DNA from: Dehalococcoidia bacterium
Lineage (GTDB): Bacteria > Chloroflexota > Dehalococcoidia > Dehalococcoidales > SURF-40
Length of the DNA: 48,334 nt
Reading direction: 5' to 3'
Assembly (NCBI GenBank): GCA_003599745.1
Contig: QZJL01000029.1
Span: 1-48,334, forward strand
The notes beneath the pieces are model-generated. The model did not search any database and had not been told where the DNA came from. It worked only from the letters and a program-made list of their open reading frames with translations. Of the stretch, positions 9,967 to 31,140 are shown piece after piece; positions within the stretch are counted from its first letter, which is position 1; every line of letters begins with the position of its first letter. Both the position numbers and the translations under genes were made by a program.

Positions 9967-10141
9967 CCACACCGCTTCGGTTCCATTTCAGGGTGTTAAC
10001 GTTCCGGGCGGATGACCGGAGGCAAAGAGTTGAAATGTGGGTTGCGAATTAAGCCACATTAGGTTAAAATGTTTTAGTTTGGAACAGGCGTTCCCTCAGG
10101 TTGTCGGGGGAAACAGCCGGGCCGAATCCGGCAGTGGCAAA

Positions 10142-10173
10142 GAAGCCGCGGGACCATCAAGTCCCGCGGCTTC
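10142..10173 (+). other. 13-bp perfect stem-loop in the 5' leader of the CDF transporter gene
   Basis: GAAGCCGCGGGAC (10142-10154) / loop CATCAA / GTCCCGCGGCTTC (10161-10173). It sits 14-23 nt upstream of the candidate start codons. Confidence 0.6.
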
Positions 10174-11224: not shown

Positions 11225-11314
11225 GGAGGGGTGTCCGAGTGGCCTATGGTGACGGTCTTGAAAACCGTTGTCGGTGCAAGCCGACCGTGGGTTCGAATCC
11301 CACCCCCTCCGCCA
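11225..11314 (+). tRNA. tRNA-Ser (anticodon UGA) with encoded CCA
   Basis: Acceptor GGAGGGG/CCCCTCC. Anticodon stem ACGGT/ACCGT with loop CUUGAAA. Long variable arm (TGTCGGTGCAAGCCGACC). T arm GTGGG-TTCGAAT-CCCAC. Discriminator G followed by CCA. Confidence 0.95.
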
Positions 11315-18702: not shown

Positions 18703-20217
18703 ATGGCAACCCGGGGACAGGATATTGTCTCGGTAATCAAAAAGCAGATCGAGCAGTTCGGCGAGAAAGTCGCCCTAGTGGACGTGGGCACGGTCATCGA
18801 GGCCGGAGACGGCATCGCCCGCATCCACGGGCTGAGCGGCGCCCGCTACAGCGAGCTTTTGGAGTTTCCGGGCGGCGTTATGGGCATCGCCCTCAACCTG
18901 GAAGAAGAGAGTGTTTCCGCGGTCATCCTGGGCGACTACAGCCGCATCAAGGAAGGCGACGAGGTGCGCTCAACCGGGCGCATCGCCGAGGTGCCGGTCG
19001 GCGCCGCCCTCATCGGTCGGGTGGTTGACCCGCTGGGCCAGCCGCTGGACGGCAGGGGGACGGTGAAGACCGAGGGCTTCCGCGCCATCGAGCGAGTCGC
19101 CCCCAACGTCGTCACCCGCAGCTCGGTGAACACGCCGGTACAGACCGGCATCAAGGCCATTGACAGCCTCATCCCCATCGGCCGGGGACAGCGCGAGCTT
19201 ATCATCGGCGACCGCTCCACCGGCAAGACCGCCATTACCCTGGACACCATCATCAACCAGAAGGGCGGCGACCTGGTCTGCATCTACGTCGCCATCGGCC
19301 AGAAGGCGAGCAAGGTCGCCCGGGTGGTGGCGACACTGGAATCCCACGGCGCGATGGCGCACACCGTGGTGGTGGCGGCCAACGCCTCGGATAGCGCGGC
19401 GCTCCAATACCTTGCCCCCTACGCCGGCTGCGCCATCGGCGAGGAGTTCATGGAAAAGGGCAAAGACGCCCTCATCGTCTATGACGACCTGACCAAGCAC
19501 GCCTGGGCCTACCGCCAGCTTTCCCTGCTTTTGCACCGCCCGCCGGGACGCGAGGCCTACCCGGGCGACGTATTTTACCTGCACAGCCGCCTCCTTGAGA
19601 GAGCCGCCAAGTATGACCAGGCGCACGGCGGCGGCTCGCTGACGGCGCTGCCCATCATCGAGACGCAGGCCGGCGATGTCTCGGCCTACATCCCCACCAA
19701 CGTAATCTCAATCACCGACGGTCAGATATATCTTGAGACCGACCTCTTCAACGCCGGCACCCGCCCGGCGCTCAACGTGGGTATCTCGGTGTCCCGCGTC
19801 GGTTCGAACGCCCAGACCAAAGCCATGAAACAGGTGGCTTCCCGGCTTAAACTGGAGCTGGCCCAATTCCGGGAACTGGCGGCCTTCGCCCAGTTCGGCA
19901 CCGCTGAGCTCGACAAGGCGACCAAAGCCCAGCTGGAGCGCGGCCAGCGCATCAGCGAGGTCTTGAAGCAGCCGCAATACGTGCCTATGCCGGTGGCTAA
20001 CCAGGTGATGATTCTCTACACCGCCATCAACGGCCACTTAGATGACATCGAAGTCGCCAAACTCACCGCTTTCGAGACCGATTTTCACCGCTTCATGGCC
20101 GCCAACCATCCTGACATCGGCGCTAAAATCGCCGGGGAAAAGCAAATCAGCCCCCAGACCGAGGAAGCTTTAAAGGCGGCGATTGGCGAGTTCAAGAAAG
20201 GGAGACTGCCGGTATAG
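18703..20217 (+). CDS. atpA: F-type ATP synthase subunit alpha
   Basis: Walker [33 protein letters not shown]. Confidence 0.97.
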
Positions 20218-23709: not shown

Positions 23710-23886
23710 CCGCCCACAGTGTAATCTTTCTTGACAGCCGGGCCCCACATCTGATTGGAATCTTCGCCAAATGGATATTGACTTTTATGAGACATTAATA
23801 TACTATTCTGGACAACAATATAATTTATGAGAATCGTCGAGTCACAGTTTTCTGACATCGATGGGGACTATCGTGAGGTATCAGGG

Positions 23887-24432
23887 ATGGCATTAATGAC
23901 AGTTCAGGAGGTCGCTGATTATCTTCGGGTCACAACGAAGACGGTATACAGACTGCTTGAGAAAGATAGCATACCGGCGACAAAGGTAGGCCGTCAATGG
24001 AGATTTGACGAGTCCTCAATTGATGTCTGGCTGCGTCAGCAGCCGGCAGAAAAAAAAGTAGCGAATATCCTTGTCATAGACGATGACCAGATGATTTGCC
24101 TGCTTTTCAAAGACGCTCTTGAGGCATTGGGGCACGCTGTAACCACCGTTGAAAACCCTTTAAAAGGATTGGACCTGGTGAAAAACGGAGATTATGACCT
24201 AGTATTTCTTGATTTGAAAATGCCGGGAATGGATGGTGCTGAGCTTTTAGCACAAATCAGGATAGCCAAACCCAAGCTCCCGGTAACTGTGATTACCGGT
24301 TACCCGGAAAGCGAACTTATGATGCGTGCTCTGGTACATGGCCCGCTAGGCGTGATGAGCAAGCCTTTTCGGGTATCGGATGTCCTGATCGCTGTTAATA
24401 ACTACCTCAGATTCGGCACAACGACCAAATAA
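23887..24432 (+). CDS. Response regulator with reversed architecture: N-terminal excisionase/MerR-type HTH and C-terminal receiver domain
   Basis: HTH: MTVQEVADYLRVTTKTVYRLLEKDSIPATKVGRQWRF. REC: ILVIDDD, LVFLDLKMPGMDG, VITGY, SKPF. The ORF is open from ATG 23827; ATG 23887 has a GAGG SD and matches the usual HTH N-terminus. Confidence 0.8.
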   Translation: MALMTVQEVADYLRVTTKTVYRLLEKDSIPATKVGRQWRFDESSIDVWLRQQPAEKKVANILVIDDDQMICLLFKDALEALGHAVTTVENPLKGLDLVKNGDYDLVFLDLKMPGMDGAELLAQIRIAKPKLPVTVITGYPESELMMRALVHGPLGVMSKPFRVSDVLIAVNNYLRFGTTTK

Positions 24433-24437
24433 TATTT

Positions 24438-24457
24438 AAGGAGGGATTATGCGCTGA
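24438..24457 (+). promoter_or_regulatory. Strong SD followed by a two-codon mini-ORF (ATG CGC TGA) upstream of the precursor-peptide gene
   Basis: AAGGAGGG (24438-24445), 3-nt spacer, then ATG-CGC-TGA (24449-24457). Confidence 0.35.
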
Positions 24458-24522
24458 ACATCTTCGCCCATTGAACCATGTCTTCATATTACTGCAAACG
24501 AAATTTCGAAAGGAGTCATCAA

Positions 24523-24753
24523 ATGAGGTCTCAGGCATTACAAAGTCTGGTCAAAAAAATCTTCGGCGACGAAAAGACGAGGCTCGAATTCGAGTCAAAC
24601 CCGGAAGGCGTTCTATCCCAGTTCGATCTATCGAAACAAGAGAAAAAAGCGGTGATGAACACCTATTCTAAACTGGGGTTGGTGAGCGGTAACTCTCAGC
24701 AGATGGAGGCAACGCTTAAAGCCACTATCGATTGGAGTGCCCCCGAGCCGTGA
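24523..24753 (+). CDS. 76-aa candidate RiPP/pheromone precursor peptide (NHLP/Nif11-like leader, Trp-containing C-terminal core)
   Basis: AAAGGAG SD lies 7 nt before ATG 24523 (listed ORF starts at 24478). Leader: LVKKIFGDEKTRLEFESNPEGVLSQFDLSKQEKKAV. C-terminus: ...GNSQQMEATLKATIDWSAPEP, containing the only Trp. Its stop overlaps a GTG of the next gene (GTGA). Confidence 0.6.
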   Translation: MRSQALQSLVKKIFGDEKTRLEFESNPEGVLSQFDLSKQEKKAVMNTYSKLGLVSGNSQQMEATLKATIDWSAPEP

Positions 24754-25715
24754 CGCCACTGCCGTGGCAAGAAAAACAGACTCAGGTTCTCAGAAGTGAG
24801 ATAGATTTAGTTCTGGCGCCTTTGACTAACATTGCTAGTTTATGCGATTTGGTTAAAGAATCTCTTACACAGGAGAGAAGGGCATTTGCCACCGAACACG
24901 AGAATAGCCGGCCGTGGCCTCTATTACCTTTGATAATATGTGAGGCGATCTCAGGCCAATATGAAGTAGCAATCCCTGTGGCAGCCGCTCGCCAATTTAT
25001 GGTAGCTGCTGCTGACATCTTTGATGACATAGAGGACGAAGATTCTCCGAGGTCGTTACCTGCCAAATATGGGGTTGCAGCGGCGACAAATGTGGCGACA
25101 ACTCTTCTAATTCTGGCAGAAAGAGCTGTTACGCGACTTAAAGATAAAGGCGTCTCAAATGAGAATGTAGTCCGAGTCATGGACTCTTTCAATTCGTTCT
25201 ATGCCACTGCATGTGTTGGGCAACACTTAGACCTCTCTTTAACTCCAGAAACAGCGGCCTCGGAGGAAATCTATCTCAGAATCATAGAATTGAAGTCAGC
25301 GTCTCAGGTAAAGTGTGCCTGCAATATAGGAGCGTTGCTAGCAGGAGCTGACCGGCAATTGATCGCCAAGTTCTCAGATTTTGGTTATAACCTTGGAATG
25401 GCTTCACAAATCACAAATGACATTCAGGGGATTACTGATGGAAAGGACATTTTTAATAGAAAAATAACTCTGCCTGTAATATACGCACTAAATCAAACGG
25501 AGGGGGACATTCGGCTAGAGCTAGAGACCGTATTCTGCAAAAGGTCCAAGCATGAACCTGCTACATCATTAATACAGGATTTGTTGTTTCGTACCGGTGG
25601 CATTCACTACGCTGTGGTAAAGATGGAACTATATAGACAGAAAGCTATGGATATCCTATCAGATATTACAAAGTTAGGAATTGTTGTAGAAAGGCTAAAA
25701 CTGTTCCTAGAATGA
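24750..25715 (+). CDS. Polyprenyl-synthetase-family protein with degenerate catalytic motifs; ComQ-like peptide prenyltransferase candidate
   Basis: First acidic motif retained (IFDDIEDED). The second DDxxD is replaced by NDIQG (GMASQITNDIQG). GGKRxRP and RRG signatures are absent. GQHLDL and KITLPVIYAL match the family fold. The ORF is open from TTG 24732; GTG 24750 gives GTGA coupling to the peptide gene. Confidence 0.75.
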   Translation: MTPLPWQEKQTQVLRSEIDLVLAPLTNIASLCDLVKESLTQERRAFATEHENSRPWPLLPLIICEAISGQYEVAIPVAAARQFMVAAADIFDDIEDEDSPRSLPAKYGVAAATNVATTLLILAERAVTRLKDKGVSNENVVRVMDSFNSFYATACVGQHLDLSLTPETAASEEIYLRIIELKSASQVKCACNIGALLAGADRQLIAKFSDFGYNLGMASQITNDIQGITDGKDIFNRKITLPVIYALNQTEGDIRLELETVFCKRSKHEPATSLIQDLLFRTGGIHYAVVKMELYRQKAMDILSDITKLGIVVERLKLFLE

Positions 25716-25731
25716 AACAAACGGAGTTCCC

Positions 25732-28155
25732 TTGAGTTCTTCAGATAATAGATTAAACCGGCTGCTAACTGGGAAAGAAGGACTGAAGCCAACGCTGCTT
25801 TTATTCTTTGCCTTCTGCATTGTAGCTATTTCCCTAATTTTCTTCATCTCAAGTATCGGCAAGCCGTCTATCGGAGTAAGTCTCACTCGTGATTCTCAAG
25901 GTTGGCTAGTCAGCATCACGGATGCAAACGGCTTAGCAAATGAGACTGGTATTAAAGCCGGTGACAGGCCAATAGAAATCAATGGTCAGCCAGCCCAAGT
26001 GTTCTTAGAAAAATACGAAGAGGTCGGTTTGGTTCTTGGAAGACTAATCCAGAAACTCACTGTAGTCGACAATGTTGGACAGACCAAGACGGTAGTTCTT
26101 GAAGGTACTTCACCTTCATGGGAATCGATCATTAGCCGGATCTCGAGGTTTGCAGTCTCCTTCATATTTTGGATAACCGCATTCTTCGTGTTCTTTAAAA
26201 AACCGAAAAGCATTTTATCTCTACTGCTAATATTAATGGGGCTTTCATTCGGTCTTGTCCTTAGTGGGAACATGGCATCTGAGGTTGCAATTGCCACAGC
26301 GGTCTGGTTTGAGGTTACTGCGACAGCTATCGCGCCTTGGCTGCTCCTCCATTTTTTCCTTGCGCTACCCCAGGAGCGAGTTTGGGCTCGGGGAAACAAC
26401 CTCGTATATCTTATCTATCTTTTACCGCTAATTGCTGCGGTTTTATTCCCTATTGTTGGTTATGCTAATGGGCAACCTGTGCCGGGATTTCGATCCTTCA
26501 GGTACGCCTTGTATGCATCGGGATTTATAGCAGTAATTTGTGTGGCAGTCGTCAACTACTTCCGTACTGATTTGACCAGAACAAGGCAGCAAATGAAGAT
26601 AGTGTTATTCGGCTGTCTTGCTGCCCTAATTCCTCCCCTAGCTCTCTATATTATCCCGTCAGCGATATGGGGACGGGCCATTCTTCCCGGAGAAATAAAT
26701 ATTTTGTTTGTTGCGTTCATACCCCTGGCTATGGGTTACGCAGTCGTCACAAAACAGCTGATGGACATAGACGTTATTATGAGGCGGAGTTTGATTTATG
26801 GCCTGGTCACCATAGTGATGGCAGCAATTCTATCGGCCGGTATTTTTATTGCATTTGCTTTCCGTCGCACTATGGGGGTTCCCGAAGAAATACTGATTGC
26901 TCTGATTCTGGGAGGGATTGCCACCGCGTTATTCGGGCCAACCAAGAAGGGCGTTGAAAACCTCATTGACAGGCTTTTCTACAAAGACAGGTACGACTAC
27001 AAGCAAATAATCCAGAGCCTGGGTATCTCTTTGAACTCCGCTATTGGTTTAACCGCAGTTTCACGCCTCGTCGTCGGCACTGTGGTTAACACGTTGAATC
27101 TGGCTGGGGGATGTTTGTTTGTCAGGACACAATCCGGTTCTTTCGAGGTTGGAGCGGCACAGGGCTCGTATATTGACCCGGCCCAACAAAGACAGCTGCT
27201 GGAGCTGATTCCGAAGAGAAGCCGCCTGGTGGAGTTTCCAAATAATGCGCCATCAGAAAGTCCTGACGCAGCCTTCCTGGTGCCGCTCGTAGTAGGTGAG
27301 AAAGAGGTGGGTGTTCTTTGTCTGTCGCGTAAGAAAACCAGACAAGATTTTTCGCCGGACGACCTGTACCTAATCCAGGGGATTGCTTCAGCAGCTTCAA
27401 TGGCGTTGCACAGCGTTATGCTTAAACGTGACGTCAGTATCCGGGCTACTTTTGTCTCGGTCGCCTCCCACGAACTTCGCACCCCGTTGACTTCAATCGT
27501 AGGTTATGCCGACTTACTGCTGCAGCGCGACCCCCCGGCTGCCACCAGGAAACAGTGGCTCAAAAACATTCTTGATAACAGCCAGAGGGTCAGCGATATG
27601 GTGGACGACCTCTTGAATGTCAGCCGAATTCAGTCCGGCAAAACCAGTATCAAGCTTGAAAGAGTGAGCTTACCCGGTCCTCTTGAGGAGACTCTCTCCC
27701 TAAGCCGCGAAACTACCAACAAACATGAATTTGTTGTTGACATAGAACCCGGCCTTCCCTATTTATCGGTTGACCGGAACAAGTTCGGTGAGATTATTGG
27801 TAACCTTCTAAGCAACGCCATTAAATATAGCCCGAATGGTGGACTCATTACCCTTTCCGCTCGCTCTGAACCAGCAGAACACCGCGTAATTGTGAGCGTA
27901 TCTGATGAGGGTATTGGGATAGCTCCCGAAGATAGAGCCTCGCTGTTTACATCTTTTCACCGGATTCAGAGACCCGAGACCAAGGGAATCAGGGGAAGTG
28001 GCCTGGGTCTCTACATAGCCAAAGAGTGGACGGAGGCGATGGGGGGAAATATCTGGGTGGAGAGCGAATTGAACAAAGGCTCAACTTTCTTTGTGGCGGT
28101 TCCGGCTAAGGCTTCAAGTAAGGTGGGACAAGAATCAAGATTACCTGCCGAATAG
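25732..28155 (+). CDS. Polytopic membrane sensor histidine kinase (TM, PDZ-like segment, about 9 further TM helices, GAF-like, HisKA, HATPase)
   Basis: GIKAGDRPIEINGQP (PDZ-like), multiple hydrophobic helices, H-box VASHELRTPL, N box LLSNAIKYSPNGG, G boxes DEGIGI and GSGLGLYIAKEW. TTG start preceded by ACGGAG. Confidence 0.9.
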   Translation: MSSSDNRLNRLLTGKEGLKPTLLLFFAFCIVAISLIFFISSIGKPSIGVSLTRDSQGWLVSITDANGLANETGIKAGDRPIEINGQPAQVFLEKYEEVGLVLGRLIQKLTVVDNVGQTKTVVLEGTSPSWESIISRISRFAVSFIFWITAFFVFFKKPKSILSLLLILMGLSFGLVLSGNMASEVAIATAVWFEVTATAIAPWLLLHFFLALPQERVWARGNNLVYLIYLLPLIAAVLFPIVGYANGQPVPGFRSFRYALYASGFIAVICVAVVNYFRTDLTRTRQQMKIVLFGCLAALIPPLALYIIPSAIWGRAILPGEINILFVAFIPLAMGYAVVTKQLMDIDVIMRRSLIYGLVTIVMAAILSAGIFIAFAFRRTMGVPEEILIALILGGIATALFGPTKKGVENLIDRLFYKDRYDYKQIIQSLGISLNSAIGLTAVSRLVVGTVVNTLNLAGGCLFVRTQSGSFEVGAAQGSYIDPAQQRQLLELIPKRSRLVEFPNNAPSESPDAAFLVPLVVGEKEVGVLCLSRKKTRQDFSPDDLYLIQGIASAASMALHSVMLKRDVSIRATFVSVASHELRTPLTSIVGYADLLLQRDPPAATRKQWLKNILDNSQRVSDMVDDLLNVSRIQSGKTSIKLERVSLPGPLEETLSLSRETTNKHEFVVDIEPGLPYLSVDRNKFGEIIGNLLSNAIKYSPNGGLITLSARSEPAEHRVIVSVSDEGIGIAPEDRASLFTSFHRIQRPETKGIRGSGLGLYIAKEWTEAMGGNIWVESELNKGSTFFVAVPAKASSKVGQESRLPAE

Positions 28156-28539
28156 GGGACGAGAATAAAAAAGATATTAATAGTTGAGGATGACGAGAGC
28201 GTCAGGGACCTGCTCTGTGCCATATTCAACACCTTTATGGGGCGTTACCATACCGTATGCGCCAAAGATGGTGAAGAGGCTCTCAGCATCGCGCGGATTG
28301 ATGTCCCGGATATTATTTTGCTGGATATCAATTTGCCTGGCTTGAACGGATACCAGGTTTGCAGGCTTGTTAAGGCAGACCCGGGGATGTCAGAAACCAA
28401 AGTCATAATGATAACCGGTATGGCGCAAAGCTACGACCAGTCAAAAGCCAGGGAAGCGGGCGCTGACGGTTATTTCACAAAGCCATTCAGTTCCGCCGCC
28501 CTGGCTAAAAAAGTGGGGACTCTTCTTGAGAGCAGATAA
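28156..28539 (+). CDS. Stand-alone receiver (REC) domain whose conserved N-terminus precedes the first canonical start codon; in frame with the kinase across one TAG
   Basis: The frame opens right after the kinase TAG: GTRIKKILIVEDDESVRDLLCAIFNTFMGRY... No ATG, GTG or TTG occurs in frame before ATG 28237. REC residues present: EDD, ILLDINLPGLNG, MITG, FTKPF. Confidence 0.75.
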   Translation, partial: GTRIKKILIVEDDESVRDLLCAIFNTFMGRYHTVCAKDGEEALSIARIDVPDIILLDINLPGLNGYQVCRLVKADPGMSETKVIMITGMAQSYDQSKAREAGADGYFTKPFSSAALAKKVGTLLESR

Positions 28540-28541
28540 AG

Positions 28542-29108
28542 ATGCAAGTGGCAGAGCGCGACGCAGTAGTGCTAGTTGACGAGCAGGGCCGTGACAAGTA
28601 TCAAGATGATGGCCGGCTATCCATCTCCGGGAAGATAGAGGCGCATCGCCGTGGTCAATTACATAGGGCGGTTTCTGTCTTCATCTTTAACGATGGGAAC
28701 GAAATTTTGCTGCAGAAGCGCGCTGATGGTAAGTATCATTCCCCGGGAAAGTGGACTAATACCTGTTGCACTCATCCTGTACCGGGTGAGAGTCCAGTTA
28801 AAGCTGCACGAAGCAGGCTCGTTGAGGAAATGGGAATTGTAACCCAGTTAACCGAGGCCTTTGCGTTTTTATATCGAGCCGATGTCGGAAATGGTCTAGT
28901 CGAAAATGAATTCGACCACGTATTCGTCGGGGTCTTTAATCAGAAACCAAACCCTGACCCGGATGAAGTGTCCGACTGGAAATGGACGCCTGCAAAAGAG
29001 TTAAGACAAGAATTGGATATTAATCCTGATGAGTATAGTCCCTGGCTTCGGCAATGCTTCAGCGAAGTGTTTGAATACAGGCTACGAGACGCGAGCGGTT
29101 GCATATGA
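28542..29108 (+). CDS. idi: Isopentenyl-diphosphate delta-isomerase, type 1 (Nudix fold)
   Basis: HRRGQLHRAVSVFIFN, LLQKRA..K, KWTNTCCTHP (catalytic Cys), VENEFDHVFVG (catalytic Glu). Confidence 0.88.
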   Translation: MQVAERDAVVLVDEQGRDKYQDDGRLSISGKIEAHRRGQLHRAVSVFIFNDGNEILLQKRADGKYHSPGKWTNTCCTHPVPGESPVKAARSRLVEEMGIVTQLTEAFAFLYRADVGNGLVENEFDHVFVGVFNQKPNPDPDEVSDWKWTPAKELRQELDINPDEYSPWLRQCFSEVFEYRLRDASGCI

Positions 29109-29881
29109 ACTACCTGACTCTATTTGTTTCATTGCGTTGCACACAGACGTGTGCTCATTGTCTGTACGGATGTTCTCCCGCTAAAGGAGAGCACATGTCC
29201 CGGGAAGTTTTCATAAGGTCAGTAGCCATTGCCAAAGAGAGTCGAATCACGACATTGAATTTCTTCGGTGGGGAACCATTGCTTAACCCGCATTTCTTTC
29301 CCATGCTGCAGACAGCGTTCGAAAATGGTTTTTCCGTAATGCTCGCAACAAATTGCCGTCCTCTTGCCCGAAAAGAGCTTTTCGCCAAATTTCTAAGCAT
29401 TACCAAAACCCACCAAGAGAAAATACATATTTTCACTGCCAGAGACAAGTTTCATCTGGAGCATTTCGACCCGTTTAATGTCATCGCCGCTTTGAGGAAA
29501 GAAAATTACGAAGTCTCCGTTAGTGATTATTCTAATGAGGCAATTCTATTGTCTGAATATAACTTTTACAATCAGAACCTGCGGGACCTGAACACGCTCT
29601 ATTCGTGTTGCGGGGGCCGGTGGACGGACTATCTCGGAGTCTTGCCAGATGGTGCGTGGACGATTTGCCCCCCGTCTCTGGAAGCATTCGGTAACATCTT
29701 TTCTAACAGCCTTGAAGAGATTGTGGAATTCAAACGTGGATTGCCGCTACGCTATGCCGAAGGGTGTACCGATTGTCTGACAGACTTCAAGATCTTCCGG
29801 AAAGAATTCGAGATGGGGAAAGCCTTTCAAGCCGCGGAAAAGTCAAAGACAGGCAGCACACCCAATCCTGACGCGGTGTAA
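29105..29881 (+). CDS. Radical SAM enzyme with a SPASM/twitch-like C-terminal Cys domain (RiPP-maturase-like)
   Basis: CxxxCxxC in SLRCTQTCAHCLY and FFGGEPLL. C-terminal CGGRWTDYLGVLPDGAWTIC fits CX13GX4C, followed by CTDC. ATG 29105 overlaps the idi stop (ATGA). Confidence 0.8.
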   Translation: MNYLTLFVSLRCTQTCAHCLYGCSPAKGEHMSREVFIRSVAIAKESRITTLNFFGGEPLLNPHFFPMLQTAFENGFSVMLATNCRPLARKELFAKFLSITKTHQEKIHIFTARDKFHLEHFDPFNVIAALRKENYEVSVSDYSNEAILLSEYNFYNQNLRDLNTLYSCCGGRWTDYLGVLPDGAWTICPPSLEAFGNIFSNSLEEIVEFKRGLPLRYAEGCTDCLTDFKIFRKEFEMGKAFQAAEKSKTGSTPNPDAV

Positions 29882-29915
29882 CCAGGAAGTTCAAACGCAT
29901 TTTAGGGGTAATATT

Positions 29916-31022
29916 ATGAATGTTGCCAAAATCCTCGTCGTGGATGATGAGGAAGCCGTGCGAGAAGTGATTCAGGCGATGCTTGAAACTAAAGGGTATG
30001 AAGTAGACGTCGCGGGGGACGCTGTGGAAGCATTAGCAGATGCCAAGCAAAAACAATACGATTTGCTCATCACGGACATCTGTATGCCCGAGATAGACGG
30101 TTTGGAGCTTAGCCGAAGGTTGCGGGAATCAAGCCCTGATATTGCTTCAATACTGGTTACCGGATACCCGACGGTTGACACGGCAATGGCAGGGGTCAAG
30201 ACAGGCGTCTATGACTATATAATCAAACCGGTAAGGAAGGATAAACTTTGTCATTCCGTAGCCAGTGTCATTAAAAGGCAACAGCACGTGCGTTTTCTGG
30301 AGAAAATGGCGCGCGATTCACAAAAAGAGGAAAACGACCGGGGGCAGTTCGTCAACGTCCTTGCCCACGAACTTTACACATCACTTACACCGATGCTCAC
30401 TGGCGCCGAACTAATGCTGGAAAGAGTCAAAGGTGAGCCGAACACTGTCGAGGACAGGTTGGCAAAGGTAATGTTCGGCAGCGCACAGATGATGCGCTAT
30501 CGCCTCGACAAATTGCTGCTGCTCGCCCGGCTTGAGGCAGGAGGCTTTGTCTTACATTTAACTCGGTTTGACGTTCTGACCATCATCAAGCAAGCAAAAG
30601 CAAGGTTTGACGTCGTAGCATCCGAGAAGGGTCAGCGCTTGGAATTGGATATACCGGATAGCCCACTTCCCATCAAAGCCGATCGCTCTTGTCTCGAGCA
30701 GGTTATAACAAACCTCTTGGAGAACGCGTTGAAATTTACACCCGAAGGCGGAAAAGTTCTATTAGAAGCGAAGATTGTCGAGGGTGAACTGTTGGTCAGT
30801 GTGCAAGACAGTGGGGCCACATTTACTGACGAAGAGCGTCAGCGTCTGATGCAACCATTTTGGAGGAGCGAGATAGACAGGCAAAGGATTCCCGGGGTTC
30901 GCCTAGGGTTAGCTCTGTGCCAGAAGTTAGTTGAAATTCAAGGTGGTACGATTTGGGTAGAGGGCGGCAAGGAAGGAGGAAACACTTTCGCTTTCGCTGT
31001 GCCGGTTTCAGCCACTGAGTAG
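29916..31022 (+). CDS. Soluble hybrid REC-HisKA-HATPase sensor kinase
   Basis: REC: ILVVDDEE, LLITDICMPEIDG, LVTGY, IKP. H-box LAHELYTSLTP, N box NLLENALKFTPEGG, G box GVRLGLALCQKLVE. No TM segment. Confidence 0.88.
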   Translation: MNVAKILVVDDEEAVREVIQAMLETKGYEVDVAGDAVEALADAKQKQYDLLITDICMPEIDGLELSRRLRESSPDIASILVTGYPTVDTAMAGVKTGVYDYIIKPVRKDKLCHSVASVIKRQQHVRFLEKMARDSQKEENDRGQFVNVLAHELYTSLTPMLTGAELMLERVKGEPNTVEDRLAKVMFGSAQMMRYRLDKLLLLARLEAGGFVLHLTRFDVLTIIKQAKARFDVVASEKGQRLELDIPDSPLPIKADRSCLEQVITNLLENALKFTPEGGKVLLEAKIVEGELLVSVQDSGATFTDEERQRLMQPFWRSEIDRQRIPGVRLGLALCQKLVEIQGGTIWVEGGKEGGNTFAFAVPVSATE

Positions 31023-31140
31023 TTCAACTTCCTGAATTGCCGTTGAGATTGCACATTTGTAAGTATCGGTATTAAAAATGGTGGTAGCCGAATTCGCCAC
31101 AATAAATAAGCCACACTAAAAATGTCGCTTCTTTAGTGCG

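Follow-up and report, generated by a model that had tools for sequence, protein, structure and literature searches.

A putative, laterally mobile ComQXP-type peptide-pheromone cassette in Dehalococcoidia

Do bacteria outside the Firmicutes, to which a 2014 census confined comQXPA-like loci (Dogsa et al., PMC4008528), carry the genes for a ComX-type lipopeptide signal? The question is raised by an island of eight genes at positions 23750-31140 of a 48,334-nucleotide (nt) stretch of DNA from a Dehalococcoidia bacterium (Chloroflexota; GenBank assembly GCA_003599745.1, contig QZJL01000029.1), which was analysed at its full length and is referred to here as the window. From its letters alone the island had been predicted to encode a ComQXPA-like module for signalling by prenylated tryptophan (Trp) peptides in a non-Firmicute. 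Our comparisons of its transferase (Q), precursor peptide (X) and sensor kinase (P) all agree with that prediction, and we consider it likely, on sequence comparison, that Dehalococcoidia have in this island a ComQXP-type cassette for a peptide pheromone and that the cassette is laterally mobile. Its elements, in window coordinates, are as follows.

23827..24432, + strand: HTH_17-REC response regulator (PF12728, 1.6e-17; PF00072, 6e-25)
24438..24457, + strand: Shine-Dalgarno sequence and mini open reading frame (mini-ORF), AAGGAGG then ATG CGC TGA
24523..24753, + strand: precursor peptide X, 76 amino acids (aa), with AAAGGAG 7 nt 5' of the ATG
24750..25715, + strand: predicted ComQ-type transferase Q (PF00348, 95.6 bits)
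25732..28155, + strand: ComP-like polytopic kinase P (hydropathy; weak PDZ, GAF, HisKA, HATPase_c)
about 28165..28539, + strand: single-domain receiver REC (PF00072, 6e-20)
28542..29108, + strand: type-1 isopentenyl diphosphate (IPP) isomerase, idi (NF002995, 167.6 bits against a cut-off of 127)
29105..29881, + strand: small radical-SAM enzyme with a Cys-rich C-terminal Twitch/SPASM-like region (SPASM 19.6 bits, cut-off 21.5)
29916..31022, + strand: soluble REC-HisKA-HATPase hybrid kinase (domain matches; third-position G+C 0.54)

The best named-model matches of Q are to PF00348 and to geranylgeranyl diphosphate (GGPP) synthase models, but named models score far below their cut-offs (for example, 98.7 vs 475 bits) and none of the solved elongating synthases in the Protein Data Bank (PDB) exceeds 57 bits. 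Against the comQ of a canonical comQXPA locus, that of Halobacillus, Q is 32% identical (E 1e-25, 91.7 bits). This comQ receives the same sub-threshold synthase matches as Q, NCBIfam apparently having no ComQ model, and the lack of a match named ComQ is therefore uninformative. Motif conservation was read from 40 diverse family members with pairwise identity down to 28%. Among them the first Asp-rich motif (FARM; D92, D93 and D96) is invariant, and the second (SARM) reads Q220-x-x-N223-D224 in 40/40, its first Asp being replaced by Asn and the later Asp lost. The arginines of the IPP-binding basic motif GGKRxRP are not conserved, and W56 stands at its place in 35 of the 40, so that Q has neither the DDxxD SARM nor the GGKRxRP motif by which elongating synthases are recognised. 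Almost all of the top library representatives likewise carry Q-x-x-N-D, with canonical DDxxD synthases appearing only further down the list.

A conserved Gln just upstream of the SARM marks Trp-prenylating trans-IDS-like enzymes (IDS, isoprenyl diphosphate synthase), according to a 2026 review. Residues D85, D89, D91, D153, K174, Q212, N215 and D216 of StheQ, a Chloroflexi enzyme of this class to which we return below, correspond to D92, D96, D98, D161, K182, Q220, N223 and D224 of Q at a constant offset of +7 or +8, a correspondence based on the residue numbers printed in the preprint and not on the StheQ sequence. The combination of FARM and pseudo-SARM, as in ComQ and StheQ, supports the assignment of Q as a ComQ-type (trans-IDS-like) peptide Trp prenyltransferase, and the polyprenyl-synthase homologue of the original prediction thus appears to be ComQ-like. 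Its family is large, with more than 550 relatives in a large protein collection, nearly all of them metagenomic, and 89 library clusters at 50% identity scoring below E 1e-30 against Q. Source annotations label the homologues "geranylgeranyl pyrophosphate synthase", and many annotations of this kind in Dehalococcoidia genomes are probably wrong.

The lack of a conserved small ORF upstream of the synthase had been set in advance as grounds for abandoning the prediction. We found a small ORF homologous to X 230-330 nt 5' of the transferase in 77/80 evaluable loci, namely loci with a transferase of 40% identity or more to that of the window, and an AAGGAGG-type ribosome-binding site precedes all X homologues. 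The peptide gene ahead of the transferase gene, which had been pointed out for the window, is thus the order in these 77 loci as well. Across 73 distinct peptides the Trp (Trp71 in the window) is invariant and the N-terminal ~55 residues are well conserved, while entropy peaks at positions -3 to +1 around the Trp (2.8-3.7 bits). Two types of tail were seen: 36 peptides have W-x, and 27, that of the window with its WSAPEP among them, have W-x-[AS]-P-x-P. The window peptide alone scores 18.7 bits against NF038399, below the cut-off of 40; 27 of 30 family members match this model, with a best E of 5.5e-11, and 10 match the NHLP leader model TIGR03793. Judged by these profiles the leader of X probably belongs to the NHLP clan, with the window peptide itself below cut-off. 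Aligned by hhalign, the Dehalococcoidia leaders reach a probability of 96% against small Trp-terminal peptides from Ktedonobacteria and 92% against such peptides from Clostridia that occupy the same upstream position.

Kinase P consists, in order, of one transmembrane (TM) segment, a PDZ-like outer loop, nine more TM segments, and GAF, HisKA and HATPase domains; hydropathy gives about 10 hydrophobic segments, and the PDZ match in the first loop is weak. It is colinear with a ComP-like kinase of Desulfosporosinus over 801 aa, the whole protein (E 4e-29), and through residues 18-564 with one of Halobacillus (E 2e-19); the Firmicute comparator kinases also show a weak PDZ match in the first loop. 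The transmitter is of the HisKA type (PF00512, 6.9e-19), whereas that of the Firmicute comparators is HisKA_3 (PF07730). A polytopic kinase of HisKA type was what the original prediction had described, and to this we add that, by alignment, the sensor half of P is homologous to the ComP-type sensor. A full-length P homologue lies directly 3' of Q in 46/49 loci. Identity within the P family varies by part, from 42-54% in the outer loop, the most divergent, to 65-88% in HisKA, the least. A hypervariable peptide core and a divergent outer loop fit a co-evolving ligand-receptor pair, although a gradient of this kind is common in sensor kinases, and the hypervariable residues flanking the Trp, together with the fast-evolving loop, suggest pherotype-like specificity groups.

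How does the signal, if it is one, reach the genes that it controls? The receiver without an output domain that had been listed as a peculiarity of the island does exist as a bare REC protein, but it is probably not the output regulator, a part for which the HTH_17 (excisionase/MerR-type)-REC protein is the likelier candidate. A homologue of the latter with at least 45% identity is found just 5' of the peptide gene in 33/58 evaluable loci, and a bare REC homologue is found 3' of the kinase in 15/40. The island contains no REC-GerE regulator of the ComA type. The REC-kinase hybrid is tied to the island by composition and position only and is not conserved with the cassette, since none of the related loci has a close homologue beside it. 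Four of these loci (L004, L006, L088 and L089; related loci are identified here by L numbers) have an additional gene of 235-245 aa directly 5' of the HTH_17-REC gene, the sole Pfam match of which is a receiver domain; the window has no such gene, and there the rpsP promoter region adjoins the island.

In a scan of one genome per species, the Q family was found chiefly in Dehalococcoidia, with weaker relatives in other Chloroflexota including Ktedonobacteria, followed by Desulfosporosinus, Dehalobacter and Desulfitobacterium and, after them, by Bacillaceae. The order X-Q-P holds in all Chloroflexota loci and also in those of Desulfosporosinus, Dehalobacter and Desulfitobacterium. In the Halobacillus locus, Q is followed by a Trp peptide of 57-63 aa, a HisKA_3 kinase of 778 aa and a regulator of the REC-GerE type. 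In loci L037-L085 (Desulfosporosinus, Dehalobacter, Desulfitobacterium) an ORF of 55-68 aa with a Trp motif at its end lies 5' of the transferase and overlaps its start, and a Trp peptide 3' of the transferase occurs only in Bacillaceae loci. The Q-X-P order may be the derived state.

The island is also set apart by its composition. That it is AT-richer than its surroundings had been judged from two hand counts, both of which proved exact on recounting (22/60 G+C for 25801-25860 and 46/60 for 18961-19020); G+C is 47.4% for 23750-31140 and 59.4% for the remainder of the window. At third codon positions each of the eight island genes has a G+C of 0.40-0.60, and the values for atpD, the UDG-like gene and the RNase J gene are 0.77-0.80. 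The PNPOx-like gene to the right has a host-like value of 0.71, which places the right edge of the island between 31022 and 31141; on this ground, and because all related loci lack it, we ruled this gene out as a member of the island. The AtpD of the window is 93-94% identical to proteins from metagenome-assembled genomes labelled Dehalococcoidales and Chloroflexota, so that the host is a Dehalococcoidales-like member of that phylum. The contig of the closest relative (AtpD 94%) is syntenic with the window in the atp operon, KH-domain gene and rpsP, and its synteny ends at window base 23711, so that a breakpoint can be placed at the left edge of the island.

Low G+C is not peculiar to the window but is a property of the cassette family, for the cassette lies below its flanks in most Dehalococcoidia loci (L001-L031, L083), for example in L010 and L011, where it has 0.39 and the flanks 0.49-0.54, and in L009, where it has 0.49 and the flanks 0.62. 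This agrees with frequent lateral exchange. No integrase, tRNA or flanking direct repeat was found at the island edges, in agreement with the earlier statement as far as an integrase is concerned. Among the hallmarks of a horizontally acquired island we thus saw deviant composition and a synteny break at the left edge, and none of these three marks of mobility. Outside the island, the window contains a NiCo riboswitch aptamer at 10070-10158 on the + strand (38 bits, gathering score 37) and a tRNA-Ser (tga) at 11225-11314.

All eight island genes are on the + strand and closely spaced, with gaps of 2-90 nt; the peptide stop and the transferase start overlap as GTGA, and idi and the radical-SAM gene as ATGA. 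Genes, overlaps and domain assignments all agree with the eight plus-strand genes and minimal or overlapping junctions described originally. Promoter-like sites are found at 23778-23824, ahead of the HTH_17-REC gene, and an Rfam scan gave no RNA family match within the island. In some distant members of the family (L015, L017, L020, L129, L131 and L133) a near-consensus sigma-70 promoter (TTGAC, 17 nt, TATACT) stands directly 5' of the peptide gene, and the 90-nt gap at this position in the window has no promoter as clear. Judged by these promoters, X-Q-P in distant members would be transcribed apart from the upstream regulator gene. A perfect palindrome, CGAAATTTCG, just 5' of the peptide ribosome-binding site was considered as an operator and dropped, as it is not conserved in related loci.

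The same intergenic region contains a strong Shine-Dalgarno sequence and a very short ORF, MR-stop in the window, directly 3' of the HTH_17-REC stop and 5' of the peptide gene. Short ORFs at this position occur in L004, L031, L033, L088, L089, L093, L094, L097, L098, L101, L108, L141 and L142; those in other loci read M-stop, MI-stop, MHI-stop or MYI-stop, or extend to 8-12 codons such as MAAQDKLLQSDE. Overall, a Shine-Dalgarno sequence with an ORF of 1-12 codons follows the regulator stop in roughly half of 40 distinct loci. The mini-ORF could serve regulation, as a start-stop or leader-ORF device, or be what is left of a decayed gene.

The original prediction had further named a dedicated isomerase and a radical-SAM maturase as distinguishing features. 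Both genes are present, and L031 and L089/L120 have the full block as well, HTH_17-REC through radical-SAM gene, but they are accessory, being found in about 15-20% of family loci. An idi gene is present in 7/36 evaluable loci and always lies 3' of the kinase or receiver; 5/32 have the radical-SAM gene, which takes the 3' end of the cassette (the window, L020, L031, L088 and L089/L120). The radical-SAM family is small (130 matches), and most long contigs that have the gene also hold the cassette. Its invariant cysteines are C12, C16 and C19 (CxxxCxxC), C23, C168, C169, C188, C221 and C224. The best PDB sequence match is the peptide epimerase YydG/EpeE (E 1.2e-9), and an AlphaFold model (pLDDT 79) is closest to EpeE (TM-score 0.55-0.59) and next to SkfB, a maturase of peptides made on the ribosome and modified after translation (RiPPs). 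Our best guess, a weakly supported one drawn from this match and model, is that it is a candidate peptide-tailoring enzyme. When peptide tails from radical-SAM loci were compared with the others, both tail types were found to occur with the gene, and the tails therefore do not distinguish radical-SAM substrates.

Gene callers begin the radical-SAM gene at an internal Met, so that the window enzyme is called at 228 aa and roughly half of its homologues (P0437-P0510) at 206-222 aa. With such a start the CxxxCxxC motif is cut off and the Pfam match lost. The enzyme of L020 was called at 206 aa, and its DNA aligns to the window enzyme over 254 aa with 60% identity. These short calls look like a systematic annotation artefact.

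We propose the following mechanism, all of its functional steps being inferred from homology and from the conserved neighbourhood of the genes. X would be translated and would dock through its NHLP-type leader on Q, an enzyme that would retain the Mg2+/prenyl-diphosphate site (FARM) and in which the second Asp-rich motif would have been turned into a Gln/Asn site for positioning the indole. Q would then move a prenyl group from its diphosphate donor to Trp71, probably to indole C3 as in ComX, PalX and StheX. Where idi is present it would boost the supply of dimethylallyl diphosphate to the donor pool, and where the EpeE/YydG-like radical-SAM enzyme is present it would make a second modification of the peptide. 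Leader removal and export of the lipopeptide would fall to factors encoded elsewhere. Once outside, the peptide would be recognised by the ComP-homologous kinase through its PDZ-like loop and 10-TM domain, and the HisKA transmitter of this kinase would phosphorylate the HTH_17-REC regulator and so change transcription, while the bare REC protein and the hybrid kinase might form a branch or a phosphate sink.

Several observations weigh against this proposal. The transmitter and the regulators are unlike those of ComP and ComA, so that the output cannot be taken over from Bacillus. Against four Bacillaceae ComX peptides the hhalign probability of the Dehalococcoidia leaders is only 21%, and we do not claim leader homology of X to Bacillus ComX. 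No locus examined encodes an exporter or a leader protease, and the promoter and terminator scan of the island speaks neither for nor against a single transcript. The locus counts, which depend on identity thresholds of our choosing, include some contigs seen in more than one sample. For the radical-SAM enzyme, we found no RRE-like (RiPP recognition element) leader-binding domain, there being nothing N-terminal to the core, and in one Dehalogenimonas genome the gene lies 260 kb from the cassette; taken together, these mean that its substrate need not be the X peptide. The bare REC gene, finally, has no canonical start before ATG 28237, its N-terminus IKKILIVEDDE running from an ATA at 28165. 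Its frame is that of the kinase TAG stop, and the window reads AGA-ATA where homologues have GTG, ATG or TTG, the start in the homologues preceding "xKKILIVEDEE"; a protein started at ATG 28237 would have lost the receiver's acidic pocket. Translation may begin at the ATA, which follows the ribosome-binding site AGGGGA; the stop may be read through to give a hybrid kinase; or the gene may be decaying.

What else might the island be? Its peptide might not be a signal but the product of a RiPP natural-product cluster, for example a membrane-active prenylated lipopeptide, that happens to lie beside a two-component system whose kinase senses something else. A probable NHLP-clan leader next to a RiPP-type radical-SAM enzyme is in keeping with such a cluster, and the prenylated Trp peptides made by PalQ, the transferase of Paenibacillus alvei, can be antimicrobial. 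We nevertheless think it unlikely, as the sensor of the kinase is homologous to that of ComP and the kinase keeps its place 3' of Q in loci of two phyla, the cassette has no accompanying transporter or immunity gene, nor a protease, and most loci are without tailoring genes. That the island is an ordinary isoprenoid-supply operon, with a GGPP or farnesyl diphosphate synthase and idi under two-component control and the small ORF incidental, is very improbable. The names of the best-matching models, the labels of the homologues and the adjoining idi would all suit such an operon, but not the scores themselves, nor the Asn that replaces the first SARM Asp in every one of the 40 members, the missing later Asp and the missing IPP-binding arginines; moreover, about 80% of loci have no idi, while 96% have the peptide.

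The signal might, on the other hand, never leave the cell that makes it. The prenylated peptide would then not diffuse as a quorum signal but act as a cell-bound or intracellular modulator, for instance as a partner of the kinase anchored in the membrane. The locus has no signal peptide, exporter or peptidase, and the high conservation of the leader is compatible with a folded small protein; residues 1-59 of StheX are predicted to be ordered, and the StheX-StheQ complex is stable (10.64898/2026.08.29.745113). Yet the hypervariable core around the Trp and the divergence of the extracytoplasmic loop fit an extracellular ligand-receptor pair. ComX, too, has no dedicated exporter. We therefore regard a cell-bound role as quite unlikely and prefer the reading of the island as a peptide-pheromone cassette.

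If the island is such a cassette, ComX-type lipopeptide signalling would not be confined to Firmicutes but would draw on a modular X-Q-P unit that they share with Chloroflexota. The literature yielded no characterised cell-cell signalling system for the Dehalococcoidia, a slow-growing and largely uncultured subsurface class, in which the family has hundreds of metagenomic members; these bacteria are hard to grow and are of importance for organohalide respiration and subsurface carbon cycling. A bolder proposal, which we advance tentatively and hold to be rather doubtful as it stands, is that Dehalococcoidia run a widespread, pherotype-diversified form of quorum sensing with a doubly modified pheromone, in which prenylation of the Trp is joined by tailoring (e.g. 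epimerisation or cross-linking) through a hitherto undescribed small radical-SAM enzyme and a ComP-type sensor signals to a HisKA and HTH_17-REC output. A doubly modified pheromone would be a new chemical subclass of ComX-like signals, and on this proposal X-Q-P would be an ancient module that phyla have exchanged. The island itself, if it is a pheromone cassette, would point to uncharacterised radical-SAM tailoring of a prenylated peptide, and synthetic prenylated peptides would offer a testable handle on density-dependent behaviour in enrichment cultures.

How, then, does the island compare with systems already described? With ComQXPA it shares a homologous transferase with FARM and an N-D pseudo-SARM, a short pre-peptide with a conserved Trp near the C-terminus in a variable core, a homologous sensor domain of ~10 TM segments with a PDZ-like first loop, and adjacent genes on one strand in a cassette of lower G+C than its surroundings. 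It differs in its host, a member of the Chloroflexota (Dehalococcoidia); in its order, regulator-X-Q-P-REC instead of Q-X-P-A; in its predicted NHLP-clan leader and its HisKA (PF00512) instead of HisKA_3 transmitter; in having HTH_17-REC and bare REC proteins in place of the REC-GerE regulator ComA; in the optional idi and radical-SAM genes; and in the position of the Trp, which in the island family is 1 or 5 residues from the C-terminus. PalPXQ of Paenibacillus alvei, reported in 2023, is a unit of three genes, for a kinase, a Trp peptide of NHLP type and a remote prenyltransferase of the trans-IDS-like kind (PMC10853753). Like the island, it combines a histidine kinase and a trans-IDS-like Trp prenyltransferase with a precursor having a conserved C-terminal Trp, which is probably of NHLP type in the island too, and its peptide gene comes before the transferase gene; unlike Q, however, PalQ falls into a sequence cluster of its own, far from the ComQ family (identity to ComQ no higher than 25%), and the host is a Firmicute. 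PalQ also needs a strictly C-terminal Trp, whereas the island family has, with one exception, at least one residue after it. The radical-SAM enzyme resembles EpeE/YydG (PDB 8ai1-8ai6) and SkfB, which act on ribosomal peptides, in having a radical-SAM core and, by prediction, a Cys-ligated auxiliary-cluster region. It is 14-16% identical to them, ~80 residues shorter, and has an extra conserved Cys soon after CxxxCxxC.

From the same phylum comes StheQ of Sphaerobacter thermophilus (Chloroflexi), which farnesylates the penultimate Trp of the adjacent 69-aa StheX in vitro (10.64898/2026.08.29.745113). The preprint, dated 31 August 2026, states that this takes ComQ-like systems beyond the Firmicutes, describes no kinase, regulator, idi or radical-SAM gene, and leaves the biological role open (10.64898/2026.08.29.745113). 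The two systems each pair a ComQ homologue (FARM, pseudo-SARM, upstream Gln) with an adjacent ~70-aa peptide whose leader is ordered and whose Trp is C-terminal. They differ in that the FARM of StheQ reads D-E-x-x-D, that its pseudo-SARM keeps D219 where the window Q has G227, and that StheX ends in W-W-x. The cassette would supply a candidate receptor and regulatory output for this orphan StheQ/StheX chemistry. Neither the Dehalococcoidia Q family nor its ComP-like kinase, nor the added idi and radical-SAM genes, turned up in a search of the full-text literature. The original view that the combination had not been described thus stands for the Dehalococcoidia cassette, of which we found no report, but must be qualified by its published relatives PalPXQ and StheQ/StheX. 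Already known are the class of enzyme and the notion that Chloroflexi have ComQ-like systems; what is new is the architecture of the cassette, the homology of its sensor to that of ComP, the rewired output, the accessory tailoring genes and the breadth of the family in Dehalococcoidia.

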